Part shown: positions 5,156 through 34,302 of the stretch, in pieces | Position numbering within the stretch: position 1 is the first letter of the stretch | How the letters are laid out: each line of letters starts with the position of its first letter | Notes under the pieces: model-generated | What the model was told of the DNA's origin: nothing | Databases searched by the model: none | What the model saw: only the letters and a program-made list of their open reading frames with translations | Assembly (NCBI GenBank): GCA_051252005.1 | Contig: JBPOEZ010000003.1 | Location: 164,984 to 228,983, forward strand | Reading direction: 5' to 3' | Source: Alphaproteobacteria bacterium | Lineage (GTDB): Bacteria; Pseudomonadota; Alphaproteobacteria; Caulobacterales; Maricaulaceae | DNA length: 64,000 nt | Made by a program: the position numbers and the translations under genes

Positions 5156-5404
5156 ATGGACATTCAAACACAAAAACCCGAAATTAAAGCACCGCGTACT
5201 GGAAGCAAACAAGCCAAGCTCGTTGTCATGCTCTCGCGCAAAAACGGCGTTACACTTGCGAAGGCCAGCGAGACTTTAGGATGGCTGCCGCATACCACCT
5301 CCGCAACCATGACAGGGCTGCGTGGGCGCGGCTATGAGATCACGCGGATTAAACGCGAGGGTAAAGATACGCTGTACGTCATCCATCCTGACGAGGCTGA
5401 GTAA
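5156..5404 (+). CDS. DUF3489-like small winged-helix protein
   Basis: Track ORF 5129..5404. I prefer the ATG at 5156 because it follows GGAGA and matches the start of the paralogue at 31845 (MDxQTQ..IKAPR.GSKQAKLV). HTH-like GVTLAKASETLGWLPHTTSA. Confidence 0.75.
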   Translation: MDIQTQKPEIKAPRTGSKQAKLVVMLSRKNGVTLAKASETLGWLPHTTSATMTGLRGRGYEITRIKREGKDTLYVIHPDEAE

Positions 5405-5904
5405 TGCGGCGGGCGAGCAAGATCGCATCAGAAGTCGCCGAGCTTGAAACACTGGACCGCGTTGCCCTCGCCGCGCAGTGGGAAGCTCTAATGAAACGTT
5501 CGCCGCCTAAGGCCTGTAGCCGTGTGTTTCTCCTCAGGGCTTTATCCTATGAACTGCAAAGTAAGCATGCTCCTGATCTCAGCAAGACGGACATGAGGGC
5601 ACTCAAAGCAAGCTTGGGCAAAGTACCAAGCAGTGCCGTTGAGAATGACAGGGAAGAGGATGCTGCGACCACAACACCTAACGCCAAGACCAAGCCGAGA
5701 CGCAAGGCCCCTGCCCGTCTGGCCCTTGTGCCGGGTGCCCGACTAGTGCGGGAATGGAACGGACAGGCCTATACGGTCTCGGTGATCAAAGAAGGTTTTG
5801 TCTATAAGGACAGAACTTGGAGCTCGCTGAGCGCTATCGCCAAGGATATCACGGGCGCACATTGGTCTGGGCCTCGCTTCTTTGGCTTGGATAAGGCAGC
5901 CTAA
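5404..5904 (+). CDS. DUF2924-like protein
   Basis: C-terminal WNGQAYTVSVIKEGFVYKDRTWSSLSAIAKDITGAHWSGPRFFGL. TAATG overlaps with both neighbouring genes. Confidence 0.75.
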   Translation: MRRASKIASEVAELETLDRVALAAQWEALMKRSPPKACSRVFLLRALSYELQSKHAPDLSKTDMRALKASLGKVPSSAVENDREEDAATTTPNAKTKPRRKAPARLALVPGARLVREWNGQAYTVSVIKEGFVYKDRTWSSLSAIAKDITGAHWSGPRFFGLDKAA

Positions 5905-7598
5905 TGTCTTCCCAGCGCAAACGCTGCGCTGTTTACACCCGCAAATCAAGTGAGGAAGGTTTGCAGCAAGACTTCAACTCTCTGGATGCGCAGGCCGAGA
6001 GTTGCTCAGCTTATATTCTGTCTCAAGCGGGTGAAGGCTGGTCCAAGGTCGATAAGGTCTATTCTGATGGCGGTATATCTGGAGGCCATATGGATAGGCC
6101 CGGTTTGATTGCCTTGATCGCGGATATCAAAGCGGGGCTGATTGATATCATCGTCGTTTACAAAGTTGACCGACTAACACGGTCACTGGCCGACTTTGCG
6201 CGGCTAGTAGATGTCTTTGATAAACATGACGTCTCGTTTGTGTCGATCACTCAAGCGTTCAATACAACGACCAGCATGGGACGGCTAACGCTGAATGTCC
6301 TGCTCTCCTTCGCCCAGTTCGAACGGGAAGTGACGGCGGAGCGTATCAGGGACAAGATCGCAGCCTCAAAGAAACGGGGGCAATGGATGGGCGGCCTTCC
6401 ACCTCTTGGATATGATAATATTAACAAGAAGCTGGTGGCAAATTCTGATGAAGCAAACACAGTCCAGCATATCATGACGCGGTATGTAGAGCTTAAGTCT
6501 GTCACAAAGCTCAAGCATGAACTTGACCTTGATGGTTATCTTACCAAAACCCGCATAACAAGGAAGCAGTCTCAGACAGGCGGCAAGCCCTTTAGCCGCG
6601 GCCACCTCTACAAGCTCCTTTGCAATCCCGTTTACATCGGCAAGACCACACATAAAGGCGTGGTCTTTGACGGACAGCATGATCCTATCGTTGATCAGGA
6701 ATTATGGAATTCGGTACAAGCAGGGCTCAAAGCAAATGCTCCTAAGCGAAGGCGTTCCATTAACATCGCATCGAATAGTCTTCTCACAGGGATGATCTTT
6801 GAAGATAGCGGAGACCGCCTTTCTCCCGTGCATTCTAGAAAGCCCAATGGAAGGCGTTACCGCTATTACATCTCGGCGCGATTATCAAAAGGCGAAATGG
6901 ATGACGGGACGGCCTTGAGGCTTCCGGCCAAACAGATTGAGGGTCAGGTGTTTAGGCGTCTGACAGACCTATTAAGCAATACAGGCCAATTGATGGGTAT
7001 GGTAGACGGCTCACACCTGACACCCCAACAGGTTTCAAAGGTAGAGCAGCATGCAAGCGAGCTAGCCGCGCGCCTCACATCAAACTGCGTTGAAACGCAG
7101 AGAACCCTACTGATTGATATCATTCAACGGATTACCATCTCGCCCAAGGACCTTATGTTGGAGCTTCGGAGGGACGCATTATTTCCAGATGGCATTTGCT
7201 CCCAAAAAGTCAAACTCGAAAACGACGCCATTACGCTCGCCTATCCGCTACAGATGAAGCGGCGCGGCATTGAGACTAAACTCATCATTGGCGGCGTGGC
7301 GTTAGGGCAGCCAGACCCCGAACTTATCAAACTTATTGCCAAGGCCAGAAACTGGTATGGTGGCCTTAAGACGGGACGCTTCAAATCTATCAAAGACATC
7401 GCAGCAATTGAAAAAATGGATGACGGTGATGTCAGCAGAACCTTATCCCTCGCCTTTCTTGCCCCCTCGATCATTCATGACATCATTGCTGGTAATCATG
7501 CTATAAATCTCACGCCAAGAGACTTAAGCCGCAAAGCTAATAGGCTTCCATTAGATTGGGCGCAGCAGCGCAGCTTTCTAGGCATGAAAGCTACCTAA
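5904..7598 (+). CDS. Large serine recombinase (resolvase/invertase N-domain plus recombinase domain)
   Basis: CAVYTRKSSEEGLQQDFNSLDAQ (catalytic Ser region), VVYKVDRLTRS, GHLYKLLCNPVYIGK. 564 aa. No CxxC pairs where a zinc ribbon would normally sit. Confidence 0.9.
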   Translation: MSSQRKRCAVYTRKSSEEGLQQDFNSLDAQAESCSAYILSQAGEGWSKVDKVYSDGGISGGHMDRPGLIALIADIKAGLIDIIVVYKVDRLTRSLADFARLVDVFDKHDVSFVSITQAFNTTTSMGRLTLNVLLSFAQFEREVTAERIRDKIAASKKRGQWMGGLPPLGYDNINKKLVANSDEANTVQHIMTRYVELKSVTKLKHELDLDGYLTKTRITRKQSQTGGKPFSRGHLYKLLCNPVYIGKTTHKGVVFDGQHDPIVDQELWNSVQAGLKANAPKRRRSINIASNSLLTGMIFEDSGDRLSPVHSRKPNGRRYRYYISARLSKGEMDDGTALRLPAKQIEGQVFRRLTDLLSNTGQLMGMVDGSHLTPQQVSKVEQHASELAARLTSNCVETQRTLLIDIIQRITISPKDLMLELRRDALFPDGICSQKVKLENDAITLAYPLQMKRRGIETKLIIGGVALGQPDPELIKLIAKARNWYGGLKTGRFKSIKDIAAIEKMDDGDVSRTLSLAFLAPSIIHDIIAGNHAINLTPRDLSRKANRLPLDWAQQRSFLGMKAT

Positions 7599-8203: not shown

Positions 8204-8983
8204 TTAAATTGCTTTCGCAATCATCCATATCCCCATGCCAATCATGGCTAGGTTTTCGGTGAGTGATACAAAGCCCAGCGGTACATTCGCCCCGCCGCCA
8301 ACACAGGCGCATTTTAGATCACGCTTATCGACATAGACCGCTTTAATAACTGAGATCGCGCCAATCGTCCCAATGAACAAAGCAATAGGCGCGGCTATCA
8401 ACCCAAATATTCCGCCTGCAACCATCAGGATTGCGGCCAGCGCTTCTGCAAACGGATAGACATAGGAATAACGCACAACCCGCCGCGCTAAAATATCATA
8501 GCCGACAAACATATTTGAGAAGGTTTCCAAATCTCGTAATTTGAGCATGGCCAGCATGCCCATTGAGAAGGCAATAAACCATTCCAGTGCTCGCAGATTG
8601 AGTACATCGCCTGATGTCGCCCAATTGGCCGCAATCGCGAGCAGTGCGGAGATATAGAAGACGACTAAAACAGGCGTGTAAGTCTTCTTATCCGGGTCTT
8701 TCACCTTATACCCGAAGTTCTCTCGCAGAGCATCAAAGCCGCCGATACGGTCACCGTCGATGAAAGTTTGCGGCGTGGTCTTTACATCATGCTTTTCTTT
8801 AAAGGCATCCGTGTCGACGCGGTTTGTCAGCCAATTATCCTCAACCTCAAACCCTTTGCGTTTGAGAAGGTCCACAGTCTTGATACCAAAGGGACAGATA
8901 TGTTTATCCGTCACCATGCGGTAGACAACGGCCTTTTTACCTTGAGACGTCTCTTTCACGGCAAGTTTGTCTGAAATACTCAT
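8204..8983 (-). CDS. Glutaredoxin-like domain fused to a MauE/DoxX-type membrane domain
   Basis: N-terminal Grx fold (VVYRMVTDKHICPFG...TPQTFIDGDRIGGFDAL) followed by about 4 TM helices typical of MauE. Confidence 0.7.
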   Translation of the reverse strand: MSISDKLAVKETSQGKKAVVYRMVTDKHICPFGIKTVDLLKRKGFEVEDNWLTNRVDTDAFKEKHDVKTTPQTFIDGDRIGGFDALRENFGYKVKDPDKKTYTPVLVVFYISALLAIAANWATSGDVLNLRALEWFIAFSMGMLAMLKLRDLETFSNMFVGYDILARRVVRYSYVYPFAEALAAILMVAGGIFGLIAAPIALFIGTIGAISVIKAVYVDKRDLKCACVGGGANVPLGFVSLTENLAMIGMGIWMIAKAI

Positions 8984-9005
8984 AACTGTCTCCTTCCAGT
9001 TTGAA

Positions 9006-9155
9006 TTATGCTTTAGCGGAACAACAACATTCGCTTTTTGGCTTAGTTAAAGGATCTACCTTTGGCTTGCTCGAAGGTGCATTATTATGGGTAGCGTTCG
9101 ATTTTTGGTTGCAACAGGCTGATTGCGAGGGAGCCGTTATGTGAGTGCAGGGCAT
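9006..9155 (-). CDS. Small Cys-rich peptide (49 aa), below the ORF-track cutoff
   Basis: Hand translation: MPCTHITAPSQSACCNQKSNATHNNAPSSKPKVDPLTKPKSECCCSAKA. RBS GGAAAGG lies 6 nt upstream. It starts ~40 nt downstream of a CsoR-type box and ends 22 nt before the Grx-MauE gene. Confidence 0.5.
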   Translation of the reverse strand: MPCTHITAPSQSACCNQKSNATHNNAPSSKPKVDPLTKPKSECCCSAKA

Positions 9156-9195
9156 GAAAAACCTTTCCTATGGATTGCATTTCCATATACATATA

Positions 9196-9212
9196 ATACC
9201 TATAGGGGGTAT
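9196..9212. promoter_or_regulatory. CsoR-type operator candidate ATACCTATAGGGGGTAT
   Basis: GC tract flanked by an AT-rich inverted repeat. Resembles the Bacillus copZA CsoR box (TACCCTACGGGGGTA) as I recall it. Confidence 0.6.
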
Positions 9213-9293: not shown

Positions 9294-10139
9294 CTAATGG
9301 TGATGGCCTCCGGGCCCCGTAAGGGTGGTTGCCAATAAGATACAGACGAGAACGAGTATAAATAAAGCGGCTTCAAGGCTTAATGATTTACGCAGCGCCG
9401 CACGTCCAAGCGATGGCGATTGCGTTAGGAGACCTGCAATTCGAAATTTATTATAAGCGCCCACACCCAATATCAACAAAGCCGAAATGAACTTGCCCAT
9501 TAACAGGCGGCCATAAAGCGTTGAGCTTAAATTGAGTAAATTACCGTTTAGCCGCCATAGCAAATAGAGCCCGGACACAAATAGAAGCGGCACAGCCCAA
9601 ACGGCAAAAAAACTAAACCGATCCGCCCTCGCGATTATGTCATTATCCGATGTCGCAGTTGAGGGCCAAAGACTGATCGGAGCCCATATCCAAAACCCCG
9701 CAATAAGACTATGAGGGACCACCCAGAGCGGAAGCAACGGCATGTTTTCGGCGCCTTGCGTATGCCCTGATGCCGCAAAACCTGCGCTCAATACGATTAT
9801 CGAAAAAGCCGCCGCTATTTTTCTCAAAGCGTTCGCGTTTATGAAGCTGGAGAGAATGGCTAAACCCGCGCCGCCCATGAACACCAAAAACTGAGTCCCA
9901 TTGGACTGCCAGACCCAGCCGAAAGTCTCTGGGTTAAAGGCCGGCGAAAGTGAGCCTGCTAATTGCGCATTGGCAATGATCAGCTTTGAGATGGCTCCTA
10001 TAATGAGAACCGCGACAAATACACGAAGACCCTTCAGTTTTTGCTGAATGCCGAGACAAAAATGCGACAAGATGCCGATTGTGACTAAAGCTGCAATATA
10101 GAGCGTTAGTTTTACAATCAGGGCTAAAGCGGTCAGCAT
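9294..10139 (-). CDS. copD: CopD-family copper resistance membrane protein
   Basis: Polytopic membrane protein immediately downstream of copC in the same operon. Confidence 0.7.
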   Translation of the reverse strand: MLTALALIVKLTLYIAALVTIGILSHFCLGIQQKLKGLRVFVAVLIIGAISKLIIANAQLAGSLSPAFNPETFGWVWQSNGTQFLVFMGGAGLAILSSFINANALRKIAAAFSIIVLSAGFAASGHTQGAENMPLLPLWVVPHSLIAGFWIWAPISLWPSTATSDNDIIARADRFSFFAVWAVPLLFVSGLYLLWRLNGNLLNLSSTLYGRLLMGKFISALLILGVGAYNKFRIAGLLTQSPSLGRAALRKSLSLEAALFILVLVCILLATTLTGPGGHHH

Positions 10140-10147
10140 AGAGACGC

Positions 10148-10507
10148 TTATTGAACTGTGAAGCTCAGGCCGCCTTTGACGATATGCCCGTCCTTAGAAA
10201 TGGCTCTCCACGTCATTTCGTATAGTCCGCTTTGAAACTTGGGCATGGGAATAGAGAATTTTTCTTCCCTGGATTTAGGCGGTGTGAAATCAACTGCAAT
10301 GTCTTTTCCCTCGCTATCTTTGAGAGAAAATGTCGCCAGTCCTACCTTTTGCGCGAACACCAGATCAAAGACTGCCGGCATCGTTTGATAAACGCCGCCG
10401 TCTTCTAATGTGGCGGATTGGACCTTAGTATGAGCCATAGCTGTAGGAGCCAGCAAAGACGCCATGAGAAAAGCCCCAAGCGTCAATTTTAAAAACGACC
10501 TTATCAT
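10148..10507 (-). CDS. copC: CopC-family periplasmic copper-binding protein
   Basis: Signal peptide ending AMA, followed by His as the first mature residue (HTKVQS...). C-terminal WRAISKDGHIVKGGLSF. Confidence 0.8.
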   Translation of the reverse strand: MIRSFLKLTLGAFLMASLLAPTAMAHTKVQSATLEDGGVYQTMPAVFDLVFAQKVGLATFSLKDSEGKDIAVDFTPPKSREEKFSIPMPKFQSGLYEMTWRAISKDGHIVKGGLSFTVQ

Positions 10508-10518
10508 CTGCTTATCCT

Positions 10519-10791
10519 TCAGCGTTTCAATTTATCAAAAAGGTCTACGAGTTCAGCGACTTTTTCGCGCTGAGCCGTCTCGTCACCGGACTGGATGGCT
10601 GCATTCACGCAACCCGCGGCATGTTCTTTGAGGATTTCGCTCTCCGCCCGCGCCATAGCGGATTTTACCGCCTGCATCTGGGTTAAGATATCAATGCAGT
10701 AGCGTTCATCTTCCAGCATTTTGATAATACCGCGCACTTGGCCCTCAATTCTTTTGAGGCGGTTAATTGTCTTAGGTGAGTGTACAGACAT
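10519..10791 (-). CDS. csoR: CsoR/RcnR-family metal-sensing repressor (C-H-C signature)
   Basis: [12 protein letters not shown] motif. Cys in ERYC and His-x3-Cys in KEHAAGC fit the Cu(I)-type C-H-C ligand pattern. Confidence 0.85.
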
Positions 10792-10844: not shown

Positions 10845-10861
10845 ATGCCCCATAGGGGTAT
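10845..10861. promoter_or_regulatory. CsoR-type operator candidate ATGCCCCATAGGGGTAT in a divergent promoter region
   Basis: CCCC-ATA-GGGG core between csoR (minus strand) and the cus-like operon (plus strand). Confidence 0.6.
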
Positions 10862-10896
10862 TTACTTTCTTAATCCTTTTGAGCTATGATGCAAGT

Positions 10897-11316
10897 ATGA
10901 GAGTCATTTCGACAGTCTTCTGCTTATTCGCAGCCTTCATCATGATGGCGACACCTGTCATGGCGTGCTGCGTCACAGGTCATGTTGATACGCCTATGAA
11001 TTCAGCACAGGCGGCTGATGCGTCAGCCCCGCCTTGTCACACGACGGCTGAGGCCAAATCAGGCGATAGCGACACGCAAACGCCAGAAAAATACTGTTCC
11101 TCTTGTGATGATTGCACTGTGTCATCTGCTTTCACGGCTTATACTGACCCGGTCACAAATACACAATCAGACCTGACCTTCGTAACGCTTATCAATAACC
11201 CTACGGCCCTGCCGCGTCCGGAAGTGCGCCTTTTGAGAACAACGGGACCGCCTCCAAGGCAACCCCTCGGGCCGTTTGACAGCCCGTTCTCACGCTTCGA
11301 CACTCAACTTATTTAA
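10897..11316 (+). CDS. Small secreted Cys-containing protein, first gene of the cus-like operon (CzcI/DUF2946-like architecture)
   Basis: Track ORF 10879..11316 starts at TTG; the ATG at 10897 is preferred. Signal peptide, then CC, C and CxxCxxC motifs, then a Pro-rich C-terminus (GPPPRQP). Confidence 0.5.
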   Translation: MRVISTVFCLFAAFIMMATPVMACCVTGHVDTPMNSAQAADASAPPCHTTAEAKSGDSDTQTPEKYCSSCDDCTVSSAFTAYTDPVTNTQSDLTFVTLINNPTALPRPEVRLLRTTGPPPRQPLGPFDSPFSRFDTQLI

Positions 11317-17400: not shown

Positions 17401-17656
17401 TAGCCACGGCGCGGCGCTACGTGTCCGTCCTAAACTAATGACAGTTCTCACAGTCATGGCAGGTCTCGCCCCCATATTCCTGACTGAAGGGTTAGGCTCT
17501 GATGTCATGCGGCGCATCGCTCTGCCCATGCTCGGGGGCATGATTTCAACAACCCTGCTAACGCTCATCGTCATTCCAGCCATCTATTTCATCTGGGTCG
17601 GTCGCCAACTTCCAAAACTACCAACACATGCAACGCTTGAAGGAGAAACCGCATGA
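14468..17656 (+). CDS. cusA: CusA-type heavy-metal efflux RND pump (Cu/Ag type)
   Basis: Three-Met cluster positions are conserved relative to E. coli CusA: LLYMPTT, APLTMIES, RMDMVSTG. Confidence 0.9.
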   Translation: MSEHNIDNLAGKDPSKSAIAKLIAWSVANQLIIIVLAIALAVGGWLSLKEMPLDAIPDLTDTQVIIRTEFPGQSPQIVEDLVTYPLSTNLLGLPKTKDVRGSSMFGTSFVYVIFEESVDPYWARSRVVEALSRLGSELPENANPQIGPDATGVGWIYQYALVDKTEQTDLAELRSLQDWFLKLELSGVEGVSEVASVGGFEREYQVHIDPNQLESFNVSIDQLARAIRAASSEVGGRVLEQGETEYVIRSSGYVKTALDLEQVVVLAEDGTPVILSDVARIVEGPALRRGIVELNGEGETVAGIIVMRDGENALEVIDRVKDKLTELQRGLPDGVEIVTVYDRAPLIEGAVSYLKKKLIEEGLVVALVIFLFLLHFRAAFVAVFTLPLGVLGAFIIMSGQGVTANIMSLGGIAIAIGAMVDASIVMVENGVRKLSDLGEKPDEATRKRVLIQAAQEVGPGLFFSLLIIVVSFLPVFALTGESYRLFSPLAFTKTYAMAFGALLSVTLIPVLMIWLLRGKMRPETANPLNRFIVWIYKPIIWAALKFKWVTVLIAIIITASVIIPAQKLGTEFMPALYEGELLYMPTTLPGVSSTKMREILGQTNRVIKTVPEVEAVFGKAGRADTATDPAPLTMIESWIKLKPKSEWRAGMTADGIVDDLNSRLQMPGLVNSWGYPIKIRMDMVSTGIRTPIGIKVTGDNLTQIEAIAREIEGVVTDIPGTRSAFADRVLGGKYLEITPNRLELARRNIDMGTFQGVIQTALGGMTLAESVQGRERYNIMLRYERAFRETDADIENILIPTPTGAHIPLREVASVAYTEGPPMIRSENARLTGWVFVDIAGRDLGGYVAEAKDIVANAVTLPPGYAIGWSGQYEQLQRANERLKIAIPAAIGLIFLLLMLHFGRLDRTLIIMLSLPFGLVGGLWAVYLAGYNLSVAVAVGFIALGGIAVETAVVMLLYIDQQVRTDGPKTRDELFQAVSHGAALRVRPKLMTVLTVMAGLAPIFLTEGLGSDVMRRIALPMLGGMISTTLLTLIVIPAIYFIWVGRQLPKLPTHATLEGETA

Positions 17657-18105
17657 AACATCTAACTCAACTTACAATTACTGCCTTAGCTGCATTTATT
17701 CTGTCTGCGTGTGGCGGCTCCGGCGACATGGATCACAGTAAAATGGAACATGCTAAAACGGATGACGCCAAGATGGACCACAGCACAATGGACTACAGTA
17801 AATTGGATGAAGCGAAAACGATGGGCGGCACGGGCCATACAACAGGCGTAATATTATCCATCAGTCCAGACGGCACAGAAGCGACGATTGATCATCAGGC
17901 AATCGACGGCGTTGGCATGGGGGCGATGACGATGGGCTTTGGTATCACGTCTTCGGTCGATCTGTCCGGATTTGCGAAAGACGACAATGTCAGCTTCATG
18001 GTCAAAAAGGGCCGTGATGGAAGCTACCGCATCACCGCAATTTGTAACACAGATACAGAGGGCAAAGACTGCCTCAATGCGAAGATGGATCATAGCGGTC
18101 ACTGA
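17653..18105 (+). CDS. cusF: CusF-like periplasmic copper chaperone with a Met/His-rich N-terminal repeat
   Basis: Lipobox LSAC. MDHSKMEHAKTDDAKMDHSTMDYSK repeats. CusF-like core GVILSI..IDHQAIDGVGMGAMTMGF. Confidence 0.75.
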   Translation: MKHLTQLTITALAAFILSACGGSGDMDHSKMEHAKTDDAKMDHSTMDYSKLDEAKTMGGTGHTTGVILSISPDGTEATIDHQAIDGVGMGAMTMGFGITSSVDLSGFAKDDNVSFMVKKGRDGSYRITAICNTDTEGKDCLNAKMDHSGH

Positions 18106-30302: not shown

Positions 30303-30935
30303 ATGAGTGGATGTTGCGACGATAAAGTTTTTGAGGGTATGTCAGACGGCTATAAACGCGCCTTGATGACGGTAATCCTGATCAATGCTATCATGTTCTT
30401 TGTGGAGATAACAGCGGGTCTCAAATCAGGTTCCCAAGCTCTACTCGCTGACTCTCTGGATTTTGCAGGCGATAGCGCGACCTACACGATTAGCTTCTTG
30501 GTGATCGGCGCGTCATTGCGCACGCGCGCCATGGCATCTCTCTTTAAGGGGGGCAGCCTTGCTGTCATTGCCATGATTATCTTGGCATCGTCTTTATATC
30601 GCTTTTTAGGTGACACAGTCCCGGCGGCGGAGACTATGGGCCTCATCGGGTTTCTGGCCCTGCTGGCCAATCTCACGAGCCTGTTGGTTTTAATGCGTTG
30701 GCGCGATGGCGATTCAAATGTGCGGTCTGTCTGGCTTTGTTCGCGCAATGACGCCATTGGTAATGTCGGCGTTATCATCGCCGGGATCGTGGTCGCAATA
30801 ACGGGCGCGGCTTGGCCAGATTTACTGGTCGCTATCCTACTTGCAACACTGTTCTTACGCTCTGCCGTCTCAATCGTTTCACAGGCGCGAGCCGAACTTA
30901 AATTTGGTGAGGTTATCCAACATGATAAATGCTGA
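30303..30935 (+). CDS. Short cation diffusion facilitator (CDF) transporter, membrane domain only
   Basis: LLADSLDFAGDS and SRNDAIGN motifs. About 6 TM helices and no cytoplasmic C-terminal domain. Confidence 0.7.
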   Translation: MSGCCDDKVFEGMSDGYKRALMTVILINAIMFFVEITAGLKSGSQALLADSLDFAGDSATYTISFLVIGASLRTRAMASLFKGGSLAVIAMIILASSLYRFLGDTVPAAETMGLIGFLALLANLTSLLVLMRWRDGDSNVRSVWLCSRNDAIGNVGVIIAGIVVAITGAAWPDLLVAILLATLFLRSAVSIVSQARAELKFGEVIQHDKC

Positions 30936-31485
30936 AACAGGTCTGATTGGACTGATGCTCTTTAATGGCTTTCTATCAATTCCATTTGGGATTCTCGCTA
31001 AACGCTCCTTTGCAAAAAACGGTAATCTCACGCCTTTTCTGGCCGCTTGGTCTGGCGTTGCGATGCACGGCCACGCTTTGATGACCTTTGGGATTGCATG
31101 GATAAACCGAGGAACCCTTTACAAGCCGCTATATTGGACGGTTTTGCCGGGGCTTCTGGTCCTAACAGTGGGCGCTTATATTATCTATCTTGGGCGGAAG
31201 GCTTATGGTGATCAATCACGGGTCTACGGGCTAAAAGAAGATTCCCTGATTACTCACGGCATTTATACCCGATCTCGAAACCCGCAATATTTTGGTTATG
31301 GCCTCATGTTCTTGGGAGCTGCGATTGCGTCAGGGTCAATGCTGGCCTTTGTCTTCGTCGCTGTGTTTGCCCTCATGGTGCATGTTGGAATAACAAAGGT
31401 TGAAGAACCGCATCTTGAATGCATATTTGGCAGACCATTTTCAGACTATAAAAAAAGGGTTGGTCGATATTTTACTTTATTGTGA
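30922..31485 (+). CDS. ICMT / phospholipid-methyltransferase-family membrane protein
   Basis: Track ORF 30841..31485. The ATG at 30922 is preferred because it overlaps the CDF gene by only 14 nt. RSRNPQYFGYGLMFLG motif. Confidence 0.65.
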   Translation: MINAETGLIGLMLFNGFLSIPFGILAKRSFAKNGNLTPFLAAWSGVAMHGHALMTFGIAWINRGTLYKPLYWTVLPGLLVLTVGAYIIYLGRKAYGDQSRVYGLKEDSLITHGIYTRSRNPQYFGYGLMFLGAAIASGSMLAFVFVAVFALMVHVGITKVEEPHLECIFGRPFSDYKKRVGRYFTLL

Positions 31486-32092: not shown

Positions 32093-32608
32093 GTGGCAAG
32101 CAGCCATAAAGTAGCGGCGGGCCTTCTTGAACTATCAGACATGGACCGCGCGGGATTAGCGGCTAAGTGGCAGGATATTATGCACCGCCCTGCCCCAAAG
32201 GCCGCCAGCCGTATATTTCTCCTTCGGGCCTTATCTTTTGAGCTTCAAAGCAAACATGCACCCGGTCTGGGCAAGGCAGACCTAAAGGCCCTGAGGGCAA
32301 GCTTTGGTAAAATCTCCAGTGTCGGGGCCGACAACATCAGGGAAGATGTAGGCGGCACTGCAGTGAGTGTAGATCAGCCCTTGGGACCTAAGGCTAAGCC
32401 AAAACGGAAGTCTTCGCCTCGCCTTAGCTTAGTCCCCGGCTCCCGCCTTGTGCGCGAATGGAACGGTCATGCCTATACGGTGGCCGTTATCAAAGAAGGC
32501 TTTGTCTATAAAGACAGGACATGGAGCTCGCTCTCTGCCATTGCCAAAGATATCACGGGCGCCCACTGGTCTGGCCCGCGCTTCTTTGGGCTGGATAGTG
32601 CCGCCTGA
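32093..32608 (+). CDS. DUF2924-like protein (paralogue of 5404..5904)
   Basis: GTG start. C-terminus WNGHAYTVAVIKEGFVYKDRTWSSLSAIAKDITGAHWSGPRFFGL. Confidence 0.75.
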   Translation: MASSHKVAAGLLELSDMDRAGLAAKWQDIMHRPAPKAASRIFLLRALSFELQSKHAPGLGKADLKALRASFGKISSVGADNIREDVGGTAVSVDQPLGPKAKPKRKSSPRLSLVPGSRLVREWNGHAYTVAVIKEGFVYKDRTWSSLSAIAKDITGAHWSGPRFFGLDSAA

Positions 32609-34302
32609 TGCCCTCGGGTCGTAAACGCTGCGCGGTCTATACGAGGAAGTCCACTGAGGAAGGACTGCAGCAGGACTTTAACTCTCTGGACGCGCAAGCT
32701 GAGAGCTGCTCGGCCTATATCCTGTCTCAAGCGGGGGAGGGCTGGAGCCATATAGGCAAAGTCTATTCAGACGGCGGTATATCGGGCGGTCATATGGAAC
32801 GGCCCGGTTTATTGGCCATGATTGCCGACATTGAATCGGGGTTAATTGATATTGTTGTTGTCTATAAGGTGGATAGGCTTACCCGGTCTCTGGCCGACTT
32901 TGCCAAGCTTGTAGATGTGTTTGATAAGCACCGTGTGTCCTTTGTCTCAATCACCCAAGCTTTTAATACCACCACCAGTATGGGACGGCTGACACTCAAT
33001 GTCCTGCTCTCCTTTGCCCAATTTGAACGCGAAGTCACAGCAGAGCGTATCAGGGATAAGATAGCCGCCTCTAAGAAGCGCGGACAGTGGATGGGAGGCT
33101 TGCCGCCCCTTGGGTATGATAATATTGATAAGAAGCTCGTGGTGAGTGCTGGTGAAGCCAGAACAGTAAAACATATCATGAAACGCTATGTGGATATGAA
33201 GTCCGTGAGCAAGCTTAAGACCGAACTGGATAGGGATGGCTATCTGACAAAGAGCAGAATGACCAAGAAAAAGTCACAAACGGGCGGCAGGCCCTTTAGT
33301 CGGGGGCATCTCTACAAGCTGCTTTGTAATCCCGTTTACATAGGCAAGATCACGCATAAGGGCGAAGTGTTTGACGGGCAGCATGAGCCCATTGTTGATC
33401 AAGAATTATGGGAGCAAGTTCAGGCGGGTCTGAAGCATAATGCACCCAAGCGCAGGCGATCCATCAACATCGCGTCCAATAGTCTTCTCACAGGTATGAT
33501 ATACGGCGAGGAAGGTGAGCGTCTTACGCCCATCCATTCTAAGAAGCCCAATGGCCGGAGATATCGCTACTATATCTCCGCAAGGTTATCCAAAGGTGAG
33601 ATGGATGATGGGACAGCTCTGCGGCTTCCGGCCAAACAGATAGAAGGCCATGTCATCAACCGGCTGACTGATCTGCTGGGCCATACAAGCCAAATGATGC
33701 AGATGGCTGGCAGCCAGCAGATAAAGCCGCATCAGGCCTCTAAGCTGGACGTGCATGCTAATGAGCTCTCACAGCGCATCACATCAGATAATATTGATAC
33801 CCAGAGAACCGTGCTGATTGATCTCATCTCCCAGATAACTATTAGCCCCAAAGACCTAACACTGGACCTACGAAGAGACGTCTTACTCCCCGAGTGCCTT
33901 AAATCCAGCAAACCCAAAAGCGGAGGCGACAACATCGCCTCCCTCAGCTACCCGCTGCAGATGAAACGGCGCGGGGTTGAGACCAAGCTTATTATTGGCG
34001 GCGTAGCCTTAGGCCACCCGGACCCCGAACTTATAAAGCTGATTGCCAAAGCTAGGGGTTGGTATGACGGGCTTAAGAGAGGACGATATGAATCCATCAA
34101 AGACATCGGGGTCGCCCATAAATTGGATAACGGCGATGTCAGCCGCACGCTGTCTCTCGCCTTCCTCGCTCCGTCAATCATTCATGATATCATTGCAGGA
34201 AAACATCCCGTTGATCTCACGCCAAGAGACATAAGCCGCAAAGCTTCACGGCTACCATTAGATTGGGCTCAGCAGCGCAAGTTTCTGGGCATGAAAGCCT
34301 AG
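32608..34302 (+). CDS. Large serine recombinase (paralogue of 5904..7598, same 564-aa length)
   Basis: CAVYTRKSTEEGLQQDFNSLDAQ. Highly similar to copy 1 over the N-terminal two thirds and more diverged around residues 350-450. Confidence 0.9.
   Translation: MPSGRKRCAVYTRKSTEEGLQQDFNSLDAQAESCSAYILSQAGEGWSHIGKVYSDGGISGGHMERPGLLAMIADIESGLIDIVVVYKVDRLTRSLADFAKLVDVFDKHRVSFVSITQAFNTTTSMGRLTLNVLLSFAQFEREVTAERIRDKIAASKKRGQWMGGLPPLGYDNIDKKLVVSAGEARTVKHIMKRYVDMKSVSKLKTELDRDGYLTKSRMTKKKSQTGGRPFSRGHLYKLLCNPVYIGKITHKGEVFDGQHEPIVDQELWEQVQAGLKHNAPKRRRSINIASNSLLTGMIYGEEGERLTPIHSKKPNGRRYRYYISARLSKGEMDDGTALRLPAKQIEGHVINRLTDLLGHTSQMMQMAGSQQIKPHQASKLDVHANELSQRITSDNIDTQRTVLIDLISQITISPKDLTLDLRRDVLLPECLKSSKPKSGGDNIASLSYPLQMKRRGVETKLIIGGVALGHPDPELIKLIAKARGWYDGLKRGRYESIKDIGVAHKLDNGDVSRTLSLAFLAPSIIHDIIAGKHPVDLTPRDISRKASRLPLDWAQQRKFLGMKA

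Follow-up and report, generated by a model that had tools for sequence, protein, structure and literature searches.

Based on the comparison of nine related loci, we propose that a 49-codon open reading frame (ORF) within the 64,000-nucleotide stretch of DNA analysed here, referred to as the window, is very probably a real protein-coding gene, few positions of which matter. Its significance is decided by comparison with relatives, as frame, start, stop and five cysteines are kept in nine versions. For the whole chain of the preferred reading, i.e. a genuine, translated, lineage-restricted mini-gene for a CsoR-controlled cytoplasmic Cu(I)-thiolate buffer, we consider the case to be evenly balanced.

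The cysteine-cluster frame and its nine versions

The ORF occupies 9006..9155 on the minus strand, starting at ATG and ending at TAA, as defined by the ORF listing and the nine-version alignment. Its translation is MPCTHITAPSQSACCNQKSNATHNNAPSSKPKVDPLTKPKSECCCSAKA, and the product obtained by hand in an earlier sequence-only reading of this DNA is identical to the listed one. The position given there, behind a CsoR box and ahead of a glutaredoxin-MauE (Grx-MauE) gene, is borne out as well. That reading counted seven cysteines; there are six (positions 3, 14, 15, 43, 44 and 45), of which Cys3 is found in the window only, with Arg or Gly at position 3 in the other versions. A Shine-Dalgarno-like sequence, AGGAAAGG (9162..9169, minus strand), is located 6 nt ahead of the ATG, in agreement with the good ribosome-binding site described previously. 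Its GAAAGG core is the same in all nine versions, within a box-to-ATG segment where 33% of the sites vary. The spacing from box to start, estimated at about 40 nt, was measured as 40 nt, and the stop codon precedes the next ATG (8983), that of the Grx-MauE gene, by 22 nt, as also noted in the earlier reading.

The 49-aa peptide is rich in Lys, Pro, Ser, Thr and Asn. Among the 530 window ORFs of 30-80 aa its Cys fraction ranks fourth, and a CCC run is present in one other random ORF of this size range. As the Cys content is not exceptional there, the window cannot by itself establish the ORF as real. Two further frames were considered and rejected. A 60-aa form with its start at an ATG further upstream (MEKYN...) can be read in L001, L082, L083, L085 and L087 (L numbers denote related loci) and closed by TAG in four versions (window, L081, L002 and L088), and hence does not offer a common start. 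An opposite-strand 47-aa ORF (9001-9144, plus strand) does not stay open in L002 and L082. Of the remaining frames on both strands, none is uninterrupted across all five versions examined.

No relatives of the peptide were found among 5.8 billion proteins, first using the window peptide and then a nine-sequence profile. Likewise, the Pfam and NCBIfam families returned no match at E up to 1, the PDB contained no relatives, and plasmids yielded neither a match to the peptide by tblastn nor a match to the locus by megablast. The single phmmer match among 1.84 billion representatives, a 350-aa tandem-repeat protein aligned over four stretches, was judged spurious, as were weak tblastn matches in L050, L031 and L077, which represent off-frame translations of high-GC genes. 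In Rfam, nothing scored above the gathering score for the ORF, the only match being a sub-threshold one to a snoRNA. By sequence, the gene has no known family. The peptide is thus absent from the 5.8-billion-protein collection and from the 1.84 billion representatives, in line with the earlier claim that the gene is unannotated, and in five related contigs with calls shown the gene callers have left a gap or placed an antisense ORF at the site. The antisense calls overlap the 3' end of copD, with 81 aa in L087 (3254-3499, minus strand) and 65 aa in L088 (1464-1661, minus strand), the 49-codon ORF itself being uncalled there; these are probably spurious calls in public data.

Following the empty protein searches, homologues were sought in the DNA beside the neighbour genes. 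The ORF is present in two of 80 Grx-MauE loci from reference genomes (L002 and L001); L081 and L082 were added by a metagenome scan using the peptide, and L083 (identical to L084), L085, L087 and L088 via contigs encoding CopD relatives. Together with the window, and with L083 standing also for L084, these constitute the nine distinct versions. All derive from marine Caulobacterales-type genomes or marine metagenomes, their peptides being 57-90% identical to that of the window and the CopD of the ORF-bearing loci approximately 85-93% identical to the window's. The nine versions are one young lineage of closely related islands.

All nine are exactly 150 nt long, free of indels and stops, and have ATG and TAA in common; one-base indels are present in both flanks of the ORF. 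Variable sites make up 63 of the 150 positions (42%), versus 51% in the adjacent non-coding spacer. In the peptide, 19 residues are invariant (M1, P2, Q11, C14, C15, Q17, K18, T22, N25, S28, K30, P31, P35, L36, K38, C43, C44, C45 and S46), with synonymous variants at Q11, N25, C44, C45 and S46, and the positions beside the synonymously changing C44, C45 and S46, namely 41, 42 and 47-49, vary in amino acid. When 63 variable sites were placed at random in simulations, the ORF stayed intact in 0.2% of the trials (P = 0.002) and at least five of the six cysteines remained untouched in 0.3% (P = 0.003), the two occurring jointly in none of 40,000 trials. Simulating 88 parsimony events instead, a type of count that may be raised by mosaic recombination, gives a joint probability of 2e-5. 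The median pairwise dN/dS of the ORF is 0.51 (34 pairs), versus 0.22 for CopD and 0.07 for Grx-MauE.

Several features of the alignment are also compatible with a frame that is open by chance and non-functional, located in a copper-regulated leader or spacer, or with DNA or RNA constrained in some other manner. The ORF is 77-79% identical to those of L082 and L001, equal to the flanking intergenic DNA, versus 89-97% for csoR, copC and copD, and the substitutions are spread evenly over the codon positions (29/27/32), i.e. without an excess at the third, which counts against coding. Chance would moreover agree with the lack of a homologue in the protein databases searched, with the absence of the ORF from close relatives and with a Cys richness that is unexceptional within the window. 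Some pairwise dN/dS values reach 1 or more (window versus L002, 1.65; window versus L088, 1.09), but the median of 0.51 points in the other direction, and a non-coding reading drawn from the first pair, window versus L002, was rejected, as this value proved an outlier once nine sequences were compared. We nevertheless hold a chance frame to be unlikely, as joint retention of frame, start, stop and five cysteines is hardly expected under random substitution, and as synonymous changes at Cys44, Cys45 and Ser46 occur amid non-synonymous neighbours, with an invariant Shine-Dalgarno core. Neither RNA structure nor an Rfam family accounts for constraint at the nucleotide level; an RNA element was considered and rejected (fold z-score +0.95, weak consensus structure, no meaningful covariation). 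The even spread over codon positions, combined with a divergence near that of the non-coding flanks, indicates that most of the peptide is barely constrained. Within these bounds, the small gene proposed earlier appears genuine, conserved and overlooked, in agreement with nine intact versions behind a conserved CsoR-type box.

The ORF is absent from csoR-copCD loci in which CopD is at most 76% identical to the window's (L003, L089, L090, L092, L093 and L094), and also from L098, although CopD there is 91% identical, with homology ending exactly at the box. As judged from these loci, the ORF is dispensable in the near relatives L003, L089 and L098. In L098 (approximately 2440-2460), the homology downstream of copD terminates at the 5' edge of the box (...GCCTCTTTAA, followed by GTCG...). 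Beyond it come a gene for an unrelated acyltransferase and another gene of the CsoR family, so that a rearrangement breakpoint appears to coincide with the operator in this locus. Comparing the window to L002, the identity is about 96-97% over the 3' half of the ORF (9006-9074), the spacer and early grx-mauE (together 8950-9005), versus 81% in the 5' half of the ORF and 89% over grx-mauE as a whole, and the same tract is highly similar between the window and L081. Such uneven identity is suggestive of recent tracts of recombination in the island.

CsoR-type boxes and the surrounding island

The putative operator of the ORF, ATACCTATAGGGGGTAT (9196..9212; ATACCCCCTATAGGTAT on the coding strand), is a palindrome of the CsoR type, ATACC-N7-GGTAT, and represents the sole perfect match to this pattern in the 64-kb window. 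Immediately downstream follows an AT-rich, -10-like TATTAT/TATATG. Across the nine loci one of its 17 sites is variable, versus 51% in the adjacent spacer, and the CsoR box recognised earlier ahead of the ORF can be retained as a nearly invariant candidate operator. A simple scan detected no sigma-70 promoter on the coding strand at the box, which counts against our best explanation.

Upstream of the ORF are copD (9294-10139), copC (10148-10507) and csoR (10519-10791), all on the minus strand, the last encoding a CsoR-family repressor 1.4 kb from the ORF. The repressor falls within Pfam Trns_repr_metal (5.8e-30), and its best NCBIfam match is RicR (2.6e-23), which at 82.5 bits is below the curated cut-off of 175. 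A search of the stretch from copD to the 9196-9212 box revealed nothing resembling a terminator, so that read-through may also reach the ORF. A second CsoR-like box, ATGCCCCATAGGGGTAT (10845..10861, one mismatch), is situated between csoR and a divergent CopL-like Cys-rich gene, where it marks a putative local CsoR regulon. Having a box 40 nt upstream, csoR nearby and this second box, the ORF is assigned by operator sequence to the predicted regulon. The divergent gene (10879-11316, plus strand) encodes a 145-aa Cys-rich protein (MACCVTGH..., CSSCDDC) that matches the CopL family weakly (E 3.5e-4, below the cut-off) and is kept in L082 and L003; this CopL-like protein represents another poorly characterised thiol-rich member of the local CsoR regulon.

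The same type of box is located ahead of DUF305/Grx-MauE in L001, L003, L006, L082, L089 and L093. Tandem CsoR-type boxes 24 nt apart (ATACCCTATATAGGTAT ... ATACCCACATAGGGTAT, as an example) are found in L003, L089, L093 and L006, preceding DUF305-Grx-MauE or Grx-MauE directly, and firmly place Grx-MauE and DUF305, both uncharacterised, in the predicted CsoR regulon of these bacteria. Other genera have a divergent MerR-type regulator at Grx-MauE in place of CsoR boxes. Separately, a conserved 150-aa protein without a Pfam match is encoded downstream of copD or DUF1775 in L090, L091, L092 and L098, csoR-copCD loci without the small ORF, and is preceded by a CsoR-like box (ATACAGTAAGGGGGTAT / ATACTATAGGGGGGTAT). 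A CusF-like ORF of 150 aa is present in the window at 17653-18105.

The ORF is part of a metal-resistance island of approximately 24.5 kb, flanked by two modules of DUF2924 and a large serine recombinase (5404-7598 and 32093-34302) that are in direct orientation and share about 74% identity across 2.87 kb. Two RND efflux systems, CusF, a P-type ATPase, MerR and a CDF transporter are among the contents of the island, and the window beyond it is ordinary chromosome, including cytochrome oxidase genes. PEMT-family genes are convergent and directly after Grx-MauE in L001, L082, L085 and L093, and the PEMT gene of the window (30841-31485) is found at the island's other end. Such an arrangement looks like circular permutation or mobile element integration.

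Relation of the frame to Grx-MauE

The gene following the ORF in the window (8204..8983, minus strand) encodes a glutaredoxin-MauE/DoxX-like fusion membrane protein of 259 aa, assigned through Pfam matches above the gathering scores (MauE 2.8e-11, Glutaredoxin 8e-6), which has at least 559 relatives. The unit that follows the 9196-9212 box in the window has this gene in second place. Two arrangements are seen among the nine loci. In the first (L001, L082 and L085), copD is followed by box 1, the ORF, a spacer of about 145 nt, box 2, DUF305 and Grx-MauE. In the second (window, L081, L002, L083, L087 and L088), the stretch from just after the ORF's stop codon through DUF305 is missing, box 1 being shared by the ORF and Grx-MauE. 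The gap from the ORF to Grx-MauE is 21-22 nt in six of the nine versions, and this tight spacing fits a deletion of roughly 0.75 kb. More distant relatives possess box 2 only, often doubled, and then DUF305 and Grx-MauE, straight after copD. As deduced from these layouts, the ORF with its own putative operator is a separate module, present in a narrow set of closely related islands only, and was probably joined to Grx-MauE secondarily, an order of events that we infer. Elsewhere, Grx-MauE is a broadly distributed metal-stress gene, found for example behind MerR-type regulators.

The sequence-only reading envisaged the ORF and Grx-MauE as a possible functional pair. Given that the ORF and its putative operator form a module apart, this idea gains little from the present comparison: in three of the nine versions (L001, L082 and L085) spacer, second box and DUF305 separate the two, and the presence of the ORF in two of the 80 Grx-MauE loci from reference genomes contradicts an obligate partnership. 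The accompanying expectation, that frame and Cys positions be conserved upstream of orthologous Grx-MauE genes, holds where the ORF occurs, with frame and five cysteines kept, and fails in that the ORF is missing upstream of most of these genes.

Spelled out, the pair idea would make the peptide a dedicated cytoplasmic thiol substrate or partner of Grx-MauE in a redox or Cu(I) relay, the Grx domain of which would reduce or load the vicinal thiols. Grx-MauE is indeed located within about 1 kb downstream in all nine ORF-bearing loci, six of them having the 21-22 nt gap and one common operator, and the Grx domain, which lacks a signal peptide, would reside on the peptide's side of the membrane. 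However, the nine loci are one island lineage, so that their co-occurrence is not independent evidence, and in the other arrangement a separate operator and the DUF305 gene intervene. At least 78 of the 80 reference-genome Grx-MauE loci moreover do without the ORF, and strong purifying selection acts on Grx-MauE (dN/dS 0.07), not on the peptide. We consequently find a dedicated partnership rather improbable.

The ORF may also be envisaged as a cis-acting upstream ORF or leader peptide that tunes grx-mauE or DUF305-grx-mauE, the peptide itself having no role; ribosomes could, for instance, pause at the Cys codons when copper depletes cysteine or thiol pools. The window ORF ends 22 nt before the next ATG, beside the Shine-Dalgarno sequence of that gene, its Cys codon runs resemble amino-acid-sensing leaders, and constraint outside the Cys codons is poor. 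What renders such a leader distinctly doubtful is that neither a terminator nor an antiterminator was found between the ORF and grx-mauE, that no stable fold is predicted, as attenuation would call for, and that in the arrangement with DUF305 the downstream genes have a CsoR box of their own about 145 nt after the ORF. In addition, many non-Cys residues are invariant (KP..., PL.K, QK, T22 and N25), needlessly so for a pure codon sensor. A terminator hairpin after the ORF in L082 was considered and rejected, as it has no counterpart in L001 or L085 and did not pass the terminator scan.

Proposed role of the peptide and known systems

The peptide has a mass of 5.1 kDa, a pI of 8.9, a GRAVY of -0.73 and no aromatic residues. 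The maximum Kyte-Doolittle value of an 11-residue window is 0.23, i.e. there is no hydrophobic stretch, and therefore no signal peptide and no membrane helix. Single-sequence AlphaFold prediction gave a mean pLDDT of 60.9 and a pTM of 0.33, which is of low confidence, and the peptide is predicted to be disordered and cytoplasmic. Its vicinal-thiol clusters, CC (14-15) and CCC-S (43-46), are 27 residues apart and invariant in the nine versions; His5 is present in eight of the nine, and a His at 23 or 24 always. With five in 49 residues (approximately 10%), the conserved cysteines are below the density of typical metallothioneins. Vicinal Cys pairs, known from mercury transport proteins, are among the classic ligands of soft metals, and Cu(I) favours multinuclear thiolate clusters.

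We propose that the peptide operates as follows. At low cytoplasmic Cu(I), CsoR, encoded three genes upstream, would occupy the 9196-9212 box and block transcription. With rising Cu(I), CsoR would leave the box and the 49-residue peptide would be made, in the window along with Grx-MauE from the same transcript. Being basic, hydrophilic and unfolded alone, the peptide would be retained in the cytoplasm, where Cys14-Cys15 and Cys43-Cys44-Cys45-Ser46, together with the nearby His (His5 and His23/24), would bind Cu(I) as a thiolate cluster, perhaps formed when the two ends of the peptide fold onto each other or when two peptides pair; this cluster may possibly bind Ag(I) or Hg(II) as well. Free Cu(I) would then be buffered by the peptide until efflux systems remove the metal, and the peptide would be metallothionein-like in function, not in ancestry. 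In this scheme, we infer CsoR binding, copper induction and translation as well as metal binding of the peptide. The thiol clusters, the CsoR operator and the surrounding copper genes make a Cu(I) buffer the most economical reading, and the metallothionein-like Cu(I) buffer suggested from the sequence would still be the best one. Alternatively, the gene may be of recent birth, having possibly originated de novo in intergenic sequence along with a CsoR operator copy of its own, and may encode a dedicated cytoplasmic vicinal-thiol carrier for Grx-MauE. The two would make up a two-component relay, by which Cu(I) or another soft metal would be captured in the cytoplasm and the metal, or reducing equivalents, passed to the membrane. 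We see a slim chance of this, and know of no such relay described for the widespread Grx-MauE family.

The sequence-only reading also raised a modified-peptide system, i.e. a RiPP precursor yielding a modified copper-binding peptide of the bufferin or methanobactin kind. A small Cys peptide in a copper-stress locus beside a MauE/DoxX-like protein would be in agreement with this, as bufferins are copper-stress Cys peptides, found in Caulobacterales and others, with operons that include a DoxX/MauE-like protein, and a DoxX-type gene is present in bufferin operons too (PMC11626156). Bufferins are periplasmic, with cysteines turned into thiooxazoles by MNIO and DUF2063 enzymes; the MNIO (DUF692) protein BufB and the DUF2063 protein BufC are required, BufA carries a Sec signal, and the DoxX protein BufD is dispensable (PMC11626156). 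In contrast, the window peptide has neither a Sec signal nor a leader-like segment and matches no Pfam or NCBIfam precursor family, and the MNIO, DUF2063, radical SAM, YcaO and lanthipeptide families, hence any RiPP-maturation enzyme among them, are absent by Pfam from the 46 large ORFs scanned in the window. In the related loci, the genes seen are limited to cop, DUF305, Grx-MauE and PEMT. Because the MNIO and DUF2063 enzymes and the Sec signal that bufferins need are all missing here, a RiPP is disfavoured, and we regard it as highly improbable.

The Cu(I) buffer of the preferred reading can be compared to other systems in which thiol-rich polypeptides occur. As with methylamine dehydrogenase (MADH), a MauE-family membrane protein is located beside a Cys-rich polypeptide. 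The small subunit of MADH is an exported, disulfide-rich enzyme subunit encoded in the mau cluster. The window, on the other hand, has no mau genes and its peptide no signal peptide, unlike a MauE-dependent disulfide-rich substrate, and Grx-MauE orthologues are widespread without the ORF. With SmtA/BmtA the peptide has in common that these are small thiol-rich bacterial metal buffers induced by their own metal. SmtA, a Zn/Cd binder under the control of an ArsR-type repressor, has a zinc-finger-like fold with approximately nine cysteines. The peptide differs in giving no match to Pfam Metallothio_Pro at E up to 1, and neither another profile match nor a PDB relative nor a confident fold connects it to this type.

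The closest parallels come from copper-responsive small proteins of actinobacteria. In M. tuberculosis, according to PMC3944814, the CsoR paralog RicR represses mymT, which encodes a cytoplasmic metallothionein binding up to six Cu+. Like the peptide predicted here, MymT (Gold et al. 2008, cited in PMC3944814) is a small cytoplasmic Cys/His peptide of narrow lineage that early annotation missed. The palindromic operator in its promoter serves a CsoR-family Cu(I) sensor, and its proposed function is that of a Cu(I) soak (PMC3944814). Similarly, socAB are lineage-specific 'small ORFs induced by copper' that are RicR-repressed, and like the window ORF they are orphan small ORFs directly under a CsoR-family operator (PMC3944814). 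The differences lie in sequence and in phylum. By Pfam and NCBIfam profiles, no sequence relationship of the peptide to MymT was detected, and it is found in marine Alphaproteobacteria, with a lower Cys density and vicinal CC/CCC runs. The Cys motifs of MymT are of the CxC/CxH type. Nor are socAB related in sequence to the window ORF; to our knowledge they have no conserved Cys clusters. Functionally, and by analogy, the peptide would be a minimal version of a copper-inducible bacterial metallothionein, set apart by its unusual CC/CCC motif and by a phylum new to this kind of gene.

In conclusion, the immediate importance of the gene is limited by its narrow distribution and by a purely inferred function. 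Proteins of fewer than about 50 codons routinely escape annotation, and one setting in which they emerge seems to be the metal-stress regulon, with mymT and socAB as earlier cases. Nine sequences and simple statistics suffice here to show that such an ORF is maintained, with no homologue in approximately 6 billion predicted proteins. Should the peptide indeed bind Cu(I), it would be the first of the metallothionein-like kind under CsoR control outside the actinobacteria, and would provide a minimal CC/CCC vicinal-thiol metal site that is easily synthesised and studied. The ORF also offers a route to the function of the widespread and uncharacterised Grx-MauE and DUF305 copper-stress genes.
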